DNA from: a virus
DNA length: 64,000 bases
Virus record (IMG/VR): IMGVR_UViG_3300029258_005404
Reading direction: 5' to 3' (one strand)
Under the pieces are notes generated by a model, which worked only from the letters and a program-made list of their open reading frames with translations, made no database searches and had not been told where the DNA came from. The position numbers and the translations under genes were made by a program. Position 1 is the stretch's first letter; each line of letters opens with the position of its first letter. This document shows positions 61,990 to 62,111 of this stretch, one piece after another.

Positions 61990-62111
61990 CCGGAAATAGT
62001 AAGGTGAACACCCTTGCATTTCTTTACAAGTTACAACTGAGGCTACAGTTTGTCTCGTGGATAGTAGAGTGCTATCTAATGTTCCGATGGAACACCCTCG
62101 CGCGCCTTTTT
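61990..62111 (+). ncRNA. Putative tracrRNA (5' end approximate)
   Basis: Hairpins at 62039-62056, 62058-62078 and 62080-62094; anti-repeats CAGTTT (62046-62051) and CCCTCGCGCGC (62095-62105); T5 tract at 62107-62111. Confidence 0.75.

Follow-up and report, generated by a model that had tools for sequence, protein, structure and literature searches.

A putative pseudoknot-type tracrRNA encoded beside an apparently nuclease-dead, truncated Cas12f homolog in a large tailed phage

Main finding

The element considered here lies near the right end of a stretch of viral DNA of 64,000 nucleotides (nt), IMG/VR virus record IMGVR_UViG_3300029258_005404, which is given as one strand from 5' to 3' and which, at its full length, we call the window. 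We propose, with a probability of roughly 85%, that positions 62032-62111 of the plus strand encode a trans-activating CRISPR RNA (tracrRNA) of about 75-82 nt, belonging to a phage-borne system resembling type V-F, whose effector would be a dead and truncated homolog of Cas12f. This proposal is supported directly by complementarity, homology, covariation, strand, protein fold and loss of catalytic residues. A bipartite anti-repeat with the architecture of a pseudoknot-type tracrRNA had been postulated from the letters of the window, and this original prediction is now backed by the Cas12f fold of the neighbouring protein, by a covariance model built from related elements, by covariation within the stems, and by covariation of both duplexes with the repeat of each locus.

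At the right end of the window the order on the plus strand is the effector open reading frame (ORF), a leader, the CRISPR array, a gap of 75 nt, the tracrRNA element and a zinc-ribbon ORF. The effector, the array and the parts of the element are:

60143-61357, plus strand: Cas12f-like effector P0001, 404 amino acids (aa), nuclease-dead and C-terminally truncated as judged by fold, profile and alignment
61563-61954, plus strand: CRISPR array of seven 29-nt repeats and six spacers of 31-32 nt, period 60-61 nt
62032-62113, plus strand: putative tracrRNA gene as delimited by covariance model R1 (49.5 bits, E 1.2e-15), ends unmapped
62039-62056, plus strand: hairpin 1 (H1), a stem of 5 base pairs (bp), GAGGC/GUCUC, with the 8-nt loop UACAGUUU (predicted fold; covariation); in DNA letters, GAGGC at 62039-43, loop TACAGTTT at 62044-51 and GTCTC at 62052-56
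62046-62051, plus strand: short anti-repeat CAGUUU in the H1 loop, pairing with repeat nt 23-28 (AAACUG) beside the spacer (covariation)
62058-62078, plus strand: hairpin 2 (H2; predicted fold, covariation, RNAalifold)
62080-62094, plus strand: hairpin 3 (H3), UGUUCC-GAU-GGAACA (predicted fold, covariation)
62095-62105, plus strand: long anti-repeat CCCUCGCGCGC (DNA CCCTCGCGCGC), pairing with repeat nt 12-22 (complementarity, RNAcofold, relatives)
62107-62111, plus strand: U5 tract (T5 in DNA) following C62106, presumed 3' end of the RNA, kept in relatives

Two segments of the element are complementary to the repeat

The repeat of the array is GTATKCTCCGCGCGCGCGAGGGAAACTGG. Its 3' part (nt 9-29) is conserved among the seven copies and its 5' part is variable, with AAACUG (nt 23-28) invariant in all of them. 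As had been predicted, the 11-mer CCCTCGCGCGC is the exact complement of repeat nt 12-22, and CAGTTT, located in the loop of the hairpin GAGGC/GTCTC, is the exact reverse complement of repeat nt 23-28. The coordinates were confirmed, as were the total of 17 paired repeat bases (11 + 6), the placement of H2 and H3 between the two anti-repeats and the T5 tract following them. The short duplex consists of six Watson-Crick pairs out of six and comes within one base of the spacer.

On its plus strand, the 64-kb window contains no second copy of the 11-mer. When one mismatch was allowed, nine matches were found, eight of which are the repeats themselves, read on the minus strand, while the sole plus-strand match is 62095-62105; the expectation from shuffled sequences is 0.11. 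Co-folding of the element with a repeat-spacer unit (RNAcofold) gave the three hairpins and the 11-bp duplex, in agreement with the predicted arrangement. All seven repeats can pair in this way, the energy of the anti-repeat duplex being -20 to -26.6 kcal/mol as compared with -8.6 kcal/mol for the repeat's own hairpin, and the single variant repeat (A19G) contributes a G-U pair to the duplex. The assertion that G-U pairs favour the plus strand also held, as the hairpins of the window contain such pairs and the matches of the covariance model are likewise on the plus strand. The predicted fold energy is -20.3 kcal/mol for the plus strand and -16.7 kcal/mol for the minus strand.

Homologous elements and covariation of the stems

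Relatives were sought among contigs encoding homologs of the effector, and each of those listed below bears a look-alike element beside the effector gene and the array:

L001 (complete phage genome of 208 kb): effector 48% identical to P0001; two copies (A and B), one on each side of the array
L003, L007: effector 47-48% identical; one copy directly after the effector stop codon
L008, L129, L130: effector 30-36% identical; element between the gene and the repeat or repeats
L133: effector 36% identical; two copies, each abutting its own array
L134: effector 35% identical; element after the gene and before the array (weak match)

A copy of the element in L001, L003 and L007 occupies the position which in the window belongs to the leader (61358-61562). 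Covariance model R1 was built from seven homologous elements, the window being excluded. In the window it found a single match, 62032-62113 on the plus strand, covering the full length of the model (1-85). The model had no match in 833 kb of unrelated viral contigs carrying the loop motif. This control set was collected with the loose pattern GTTTACCATT...CCCNCNNNC, which yielded 120 unrelated viral loci, and 96 of these were searched with R1. In the complete 208-kb genome of L001, R1 matched only the two sites flanking the array. The tail motif CCGAYGGNNNNCCCTCNNGCGCNTTTTT was absent from the collection metagenome_contigs and, in viral_contigs, occurred only in the L001 contig, and an Rfam scan of positions 56000-64000, based on E-values, returned no relevant family.

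When eight sequences were aligned, 89% of the cells assigned to stems were paired, and 12 of the 19 stem pairs had changed on both sides. None of 500 shuffles reached the covariation score, and controls with slid partners were paired to 33-45%. The H1 helix is paired to 97% over the eight sequences, with three of five pairs changed on both sides, and the H2 helix to 98%, with six of eight pairs so changed; both were recovered by RNAalifold unaided. The outer 4 bp of H3 are compensated among the window and the two copies of L001. This hairpin appears weaker in the alignment because L008, L129 and L130 use a shifted register, in which H3 is a 5-bp stem with a loop of 6 nt, UGUUUU. The T tract, five or six bases long, is kept in the window, in both copies of L001 and in L003 and L007.

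The bases 5' of the window element (62013-62038, TTGCAT...CAAGTT) resemble the context of the effector stop codon (GTTGCATAA...CAGTT) in L003 (1364-1389) and L007 (4283-4310). Judging from this resemblance, the downstream element of the window may have arisen by duplication of the gene end together with the tracrRNA sequence, the gene-adjacent copy having been lost later.

Both duplexes covary with the repeat of each locus

The prediction is addressed most directly when each element is set against the repeat of its own locus. The short duplex, formed by the H1 loop and repeat nt 23-28, has these partners:

window: repeat AAACUG, loop CAGUUU
L001, L003, L007: repeat AAAUGG, loop CCAUUU
L130: repeat AAACGG, loop CCGUUU
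L129: repeat UUCGGG, loop CCCGAA
L133: repeat UAAUGG, loop CCAUUA
L131: repeat CGUGGG, loop CCCACG

These are six covarying versions of the duplex, and in all of them six of six pairs are of the Watson-Crick type. In the long duplex, 8-11 of the 11 positions are paired with the cognate repeat. G-U wobbles occur there in copy A of L001 and in L007, L129 and L133; on the opposite strand these would be A-C mismatches, so that only the plus strand fits. The distance between the short and the long anti-repeat is 47-53 nt throughout.

L131 served as a blind test. Its effector is only 26% identical to P0001, it comes from a phage of high G+C content, and R1 found no element in it; the motifs to be looked for were derived from its own repeat alone. 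Both predicted motifs were present on the plus strand, 53 nt apart and placed around two hairpins, with the 11-mer exact. The element is followed by a proper terminator, and the effector gene is found 2.4 kb downstream of it.

It might be argued that the similarity is accidental, or that the element is what remains of a decayed inverted repeat next to an ordinary terminator, in either case with no function as RNA. The core of the repeat, GCGCGCGC, is palindromic (GCGCGC), so that short complements arise easily, and the energy of the fold is unremarkable. Such a reading is already contradicted by the comparative data, namely the unique occurrence of the 11-mer, an R1 match with E of 1e-15, compensatory changes in three stems and in two intermolecular duplexes, and the blind prediction in L131, and we give it hardly any chance. 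A related candidate, a decayed direct repeat mimicking an anti-repeat through its palindromic GCGCGC core, was ruled out by relatives whose repeats are not palindromic (GCAUGCGGGGG against CUCCUGUAUGC in L129, and ACACGCGGGGA against UCCCCGCGUGU in L131).

Two further observations concern these loci. In L131, the region of the array (4503-4560 and 4690-4760) contains further copies of pieces of two coding sequences, namely the 3' end of the effector gene and the beginning of a small ORF upstream, a pattern which suggests duplication or recombination around the array. In L130, a second, weak scaffold-like match to R1 (4662-4748, 23 bits) precedes a second array (4953-5260). That array has a different repeat of 32-33 nt with a period of 65-67 nt, and neither loop nor tail of 4662-4748 matches it convincingly.

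The partner protein

The AlphaFold2 model of P0001 has a predicted local distance difference test score (pLDDT) of 92.3, and its best Foldseek matches are AsCas12f (8j12/8dzj), a dCas12f (9n9c) and OsCas12f (9nzs), with E of approximately 1e-13 to 1e-14, followed by TnpB and other Cas12 types. Pfam, PHROGs and NCBIfam gave no match to P0001, and the PADLOC models of Cas12f and Cas12u3 were hit only below threshold (E approximately 0.01). A 53-member alignment of the family, on which the AlphaFold2 model was also based, yielded a profile which, against the PDB, retrieved OsCas12f (2.8e-24), SpCas12f1 (1e-19), AsCas12f (1e-19), 9n9c (2e-16) and, at only 2e-3, Un1Cas12f. An exhaustive search produced 143 clusters at 50% identity, nearly all of 360-440 aa. 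The family was found in metagenomic contigs only, many of them viral, and its carriers, which come from metagenomes of sediment, seawater and other sources, include phages both large and small. Ten members which were looked up were likewise metagenome-only and bore no functional name.

In profile alignments, the column of the RuvC-I aspartate corresponds to E254 of P0001 and that of the RuvC-II glutamate to K360. Neither is conserved in the family, and the RuvC-II column holds N or L in the closest relatives. All members end about 20-40 residues past the strand that follows RuvC-II, and both RuvC-III and the zinc finger are missing. In the alignment P0001 itself extends to residue 367 of the OsCas12f chain, which has 433 residues. 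It has no CxxC motif, and the Asp-Glu-Asp triad of an active Cas12f nuclease was not found in it. Judged by its alignments and its modelled fold, P0001 is a nuclease-dead, truncated homolog of Cas12f.

Fused and split forms of the guide

In some relatives this scaffold leads directly into a repeat. In L133 no more than about 2 nt separate each scaffold from the first repeat of its own array, the first repeat of L008 starts about 10 nt past the anti-repeat tail, and in L130 a solitary repeat-like unit lies about 40 nt past the anti-repeat. These natural fusions of scaffold and repeat lend support to the earlier expectation that a single-guide design would be feasible. A chimera composed of tracrRNA positions 62039-62105, a GAAA linker, repeat nt 12-29 and a guide is also predicted to fold as designed, with an energy of -50.3 kcal/mol.

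The same fusions raise the question of whether the element of the window is a separate RNA at all. It could be a cis-acting scaffold or a 3' structure of the array transcript, either an omega-RNA-like single-guide module or a terminator. No promoter is evident in the window and the element lies 75 nt past the last repeat, so that read-through from the array could yield it, and the last repeat paired with the anti-repeat and followed by U5 would resemble a terminator. We consider this improbable. In the window every repeat lies 5' of the scaffold, and what comes after the scaffold is U5 and then a protein gene. A guide cannot be joined to the 3' end of such a scaffold, which must therefore, whichever transcript it derives from, act in trans, by pairing with seven repeats. 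Moreover, the element of L131 has a terminator hairpin of its own and is far from the effector gene, on the upstream side, and in L001 copies are present on both sides of the array.

In L133 (2000-3277) the two scaffolds, both on the upstream side of the effector gene, lead into separate arrays of 15 and about 4 slightly different repeats. Nearby genes encode an IS66 transposase and a restriction enzyme, and given these neighbours this member of the family may not be phage-borne.

The array and its spacers

The geometry of the repeat is similar to that of type I-E, with a length of 29 nt, a period of 60-61 nt, a GC-rich internal stem and an 8-nt 3' tail; presumably about 19 of its 29 positions are like those of the E. 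coli I-E repeat. A period of 61 nt is found also in L001, L129, L131, L133 and L134. The absence of cas1 from two complete phage genomes of the effector family suggests that spacers are acquired by means of host I-E proteins, or that there is no uptake.

Such a repeat could also mean that the array is served by a host type I-E system (Cas6e/Cascade), and that the anti-repeat RNA is a regulator or a decoy, for example an antisense inhibitor of the maturation of host CRISPR RNA (crRNA), and not a partner of the Cas12f-like protein. The missing cas1 would fit this as well. We regard it as very improbable, for the RNA, the array and the Cas12f-like gene co-occur in nine loci although the effectors are only 26-48% identical to P0001. 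In addition, the RNA has changed in step with the repeats of the phage itself, the two-part geometry is precisely that of the Cas12f/TnpB type, and no Cascade gene was seen.

The spacers have no match elsewhere in the window, and neither they nor the array nor the effector protein matched the GenBank phage collection. Contigs from four DNA runs contained only identical fragments at this locus, and the spacers of L001 gave just a trivial 15-nt match to its own complete 208-kb genome. The first 24 nt of spacer 2 (61652-61675) match exactly a sequence (L141, 460-483) inside a gene of the enolase superfamily (MR/MLE) in a metagenome-assembled genome (MAG) of an uncultured Puia sp. (Chitinophagaceae), in the orientation that makes the crRNA antisense to the mRNA. 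Beyond these 24 nt the similarity is lost abruptly, and a 23-nt match across a spacer/repeat border in another genome indicates that chance matches of this length occur. We treat the Puia match as a weak lead and not as a finding, and it may be due to chance.

Within the leader, at 61440-61475, there is a repeat-like remnant (GAGTGAGGGAAATTGA, compare CGAGGGAAACTGG), which is consistent with decayed repeat units 5' of the array.

Possible mechanism and points that weigh against it

In the proposed mechanism, the RNA would fold into three hairpins. Its 3' tail would form the 11-bp duplex with repeat nt 12-22, and the H1 loop would pair over 6 bp with repeat nt 23-28, leaving a single base before the spacer and giving a predicted pseudoknot with H1. 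The Cas12f-like protein would bind this composite scaffold, probably as a dimer, by analogy with Cas12f, and the complex could present the spacer for RNA-guided binding of double-stranded DNA. With the RuvC site lost, the outcome would be binding or blocking, that is, silencing of a gene of the host or of a rival phage, and not cutting.

Several points weigh against the proposal. The comparative set is small, with about 11 elements in nine loci, four of them close relatives. The long duplex is interrupted by an A-C mismatch in copy B of L001, and the pairing in L134 is ambiguous. The minimum free energy of the tracrRNA alone is not better than that of shuffled sequences (z = -0.64), and with a fold energy so unremarkable the support rests on comparison with relatives and not on thermodynamics. 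There is no clear sigma-70 promoter 5' of the element, and a consensus scan did not call T5 a terminator, as H3 ends 12 nt before it. Among the sequencing runs recorded as RNA, none contains this DNA; transcription, as well as the ends and processing of the RNA, protein binding, the dimer and the biological target, is what we infer. Finally, dependence on a tracrRNA is not universal in dead Cas12f, since the clade of dCas12f associated with sigma-E uses single guides, and no tracrRNA-like species was found for it in published experiments (Hoffmann et al. 2026, PMC13472631).

A far bolder view, which we offer tentatively and with the odds against it, is that a large phage possesses, in this locus, a natural device for CRISPR interference that is complete in itself. 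The device would comprise a dead Cas12f of 404 aa, an I-E-shaped array refilled by host I-E adaptation proteins, and a tracrRNA which, at about 75 nt, may be the smallest that occurs naturally with a class 2 effector, and it would silence genes of the host or of rival phages without cutting them. The family, containing every stage from fused to split, might then record how an omega-type RNA was divided into tracrRNA and crRNA.

Comparison with known systems

The combination of a long stem with a short stem of 5-7 bp in a pseudoknot is documented for Cas12b, Cas12f1, Cas12g and Cas12l (PMC11246509), and stem 1, the pseudoknot, stem 2 and the guide form the conserved core of Cas12f1 guide RNAs and TnpB reRNA (PMC12255294). 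The background on Cas12f and TnpB architecture from which the original prediction started agrees with both of these sources. The architecture itself is thus known; the reduced size, the dead effector and the phage carriage are a new variation on the Cas12f-type scaffold.

The window system resembles Cas12f1 (AsCas12f1, SpCas12f1, OsCas12f, Un1Cas12f1) in the fold of the effector, in the long stem at the 3' end of the tracrRNA and in the pseudoknot core. It differs in size, as the tracrRNA of SpCas12f1 is 156 nt long (PMC12255294) with stems 1-5, and single-guide RNAs are about 200 nt, whereas the window RNA would have three short hairpins in about 75-82 nt and a long duplex of only 11 bp. It differs also in an effector of 404 aa without the RuvC triad, RuvC-III and zinc finger, in being carried by a phage, and in its I-E-like repeat.

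The sigma-E dCas12f proteins (Hoffmann et al. 2026, PMC13472631; structure 9n9c) are likewise truncated and RuvC-dead, at about 365-400 aa. They adjoin rpoE (for an ECF sigma factor with a C-terminal extension) and helix-turn-helix (HTH) genes in chromosomes of Bacteroidota, whereas the window has an array and a separate tracrRNA but no sigma signature, and the profile of the window family scores active As/Sp/OsCas12f above 9n9c. The ORFs neighbouring the effector in the window gave no sigma or HTH match in Pfam, PADLOC, PHROGs or NCBIfam. The same authors present a bioinformatically defined dCas12f cluster located next to CRISPR arrays, in which the intergenic sequence adjoining the array would encode a guide or scaffold RNA that covaries, and for which repression is proposed (Extended Data Fig. 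1a,b, PMC13472631). That cluster is from bacterial genomes (a Chitinophagaceae MAG, with an efflux promoter as the target) and no bipartite anti-repeat is described for it, while the window family is metagenomic and in many cases viral; the two may overlap.

TnpB omega-RNA (reRNA) and the guides of TldRs similarly form a pseudoknot between the bases just 5' of the guide and an upstream loop, and TldRs, which act as repressors, are also truncated and dead. The natural fusions in L008, L130 and L133 are a further likeness. In the window, unlike in those systems, there are no transposon ends and no tnpA, the guide is not fused to the scaffold, and a single scaffold serves seven repeats in trans. 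Cas12k (type V-K) is another naturally nuclease-dead type V effector that depends on a tracrRNA, but it has a triple helix and not a pseudoknot (PMC11246509), its tracrRNA exceeds 200 nt, and its locus carries Tn7-like transposition genes, which are absent in the window.

If our interpretation is correct, it completes a type V system of a phage which public libraries do not name, and implies that a guide scaffold of the Cas12f/TnpB type can be reduced to as little as three short hairpins, with 17 bases of the repeat paired. It would also offer a testable design, a guide of about 110 nt for a naturally dead DNA binder of 404 aa, which is a very compact candidate for gene silencing or recruitment. 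It would strengthen the case that phages carry RNA-guided proteins which bind DNA and do not cut it, and would place fused and split forms of the guide side by side in one family.

The phage and other features of the locus

The window is a portion of a large tailed phage, with genes for tail fibre, baseplate and helicase and with a base composition of 36% G+C, and its DNA is found also on a 186-kb metagenomic contig. The remaining features at its right end are:

61358-61562, plus strand: leader of 205 nt between the effector gene and the array, with no second copy of the tracrRNA element (R1 has one match in the whole window)
61999-62017, plus strand: terminator-like hairpin between the array and the element (weak consensus match)
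62135-62359, plus strand: small zinc-ribbon ORF (CxxC...(H/C)xxC)

The terminator-like hairpin is the one site returned by the consensus scan, as compared with a mean of 1.4 in shuffled sequences, and taken alone it is not significant.

Zinc-ribbon ORFs of 73-79 aa with the pattern CxxC...(H/C)xxC lie directly 3' of the tracrRNA or scaffold in the window and also in L001 (8361-8600) and L130 (4338-4559). Such an ORF is thus present even where the effector is only about 30% identical; it has no counterpart after the array of L129. No match to a protein family was obtained for it. The ORF could be an accessory of the system, or its position could reflect mere synteny.

On the other side of the effector gene, none of the syntenic genes resembles a sigma factor or an HTH protein. 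The synteny of these 5' genes extends over 57688-60022 in the window, 3917-5917 in L001 and 980-2790 in L007. They include a DUF5983 protein, in the window a pyrimidine-dimer glycosylase, and an ORF of 153 aa, the products of which in the window and in L001 share 56% identity.

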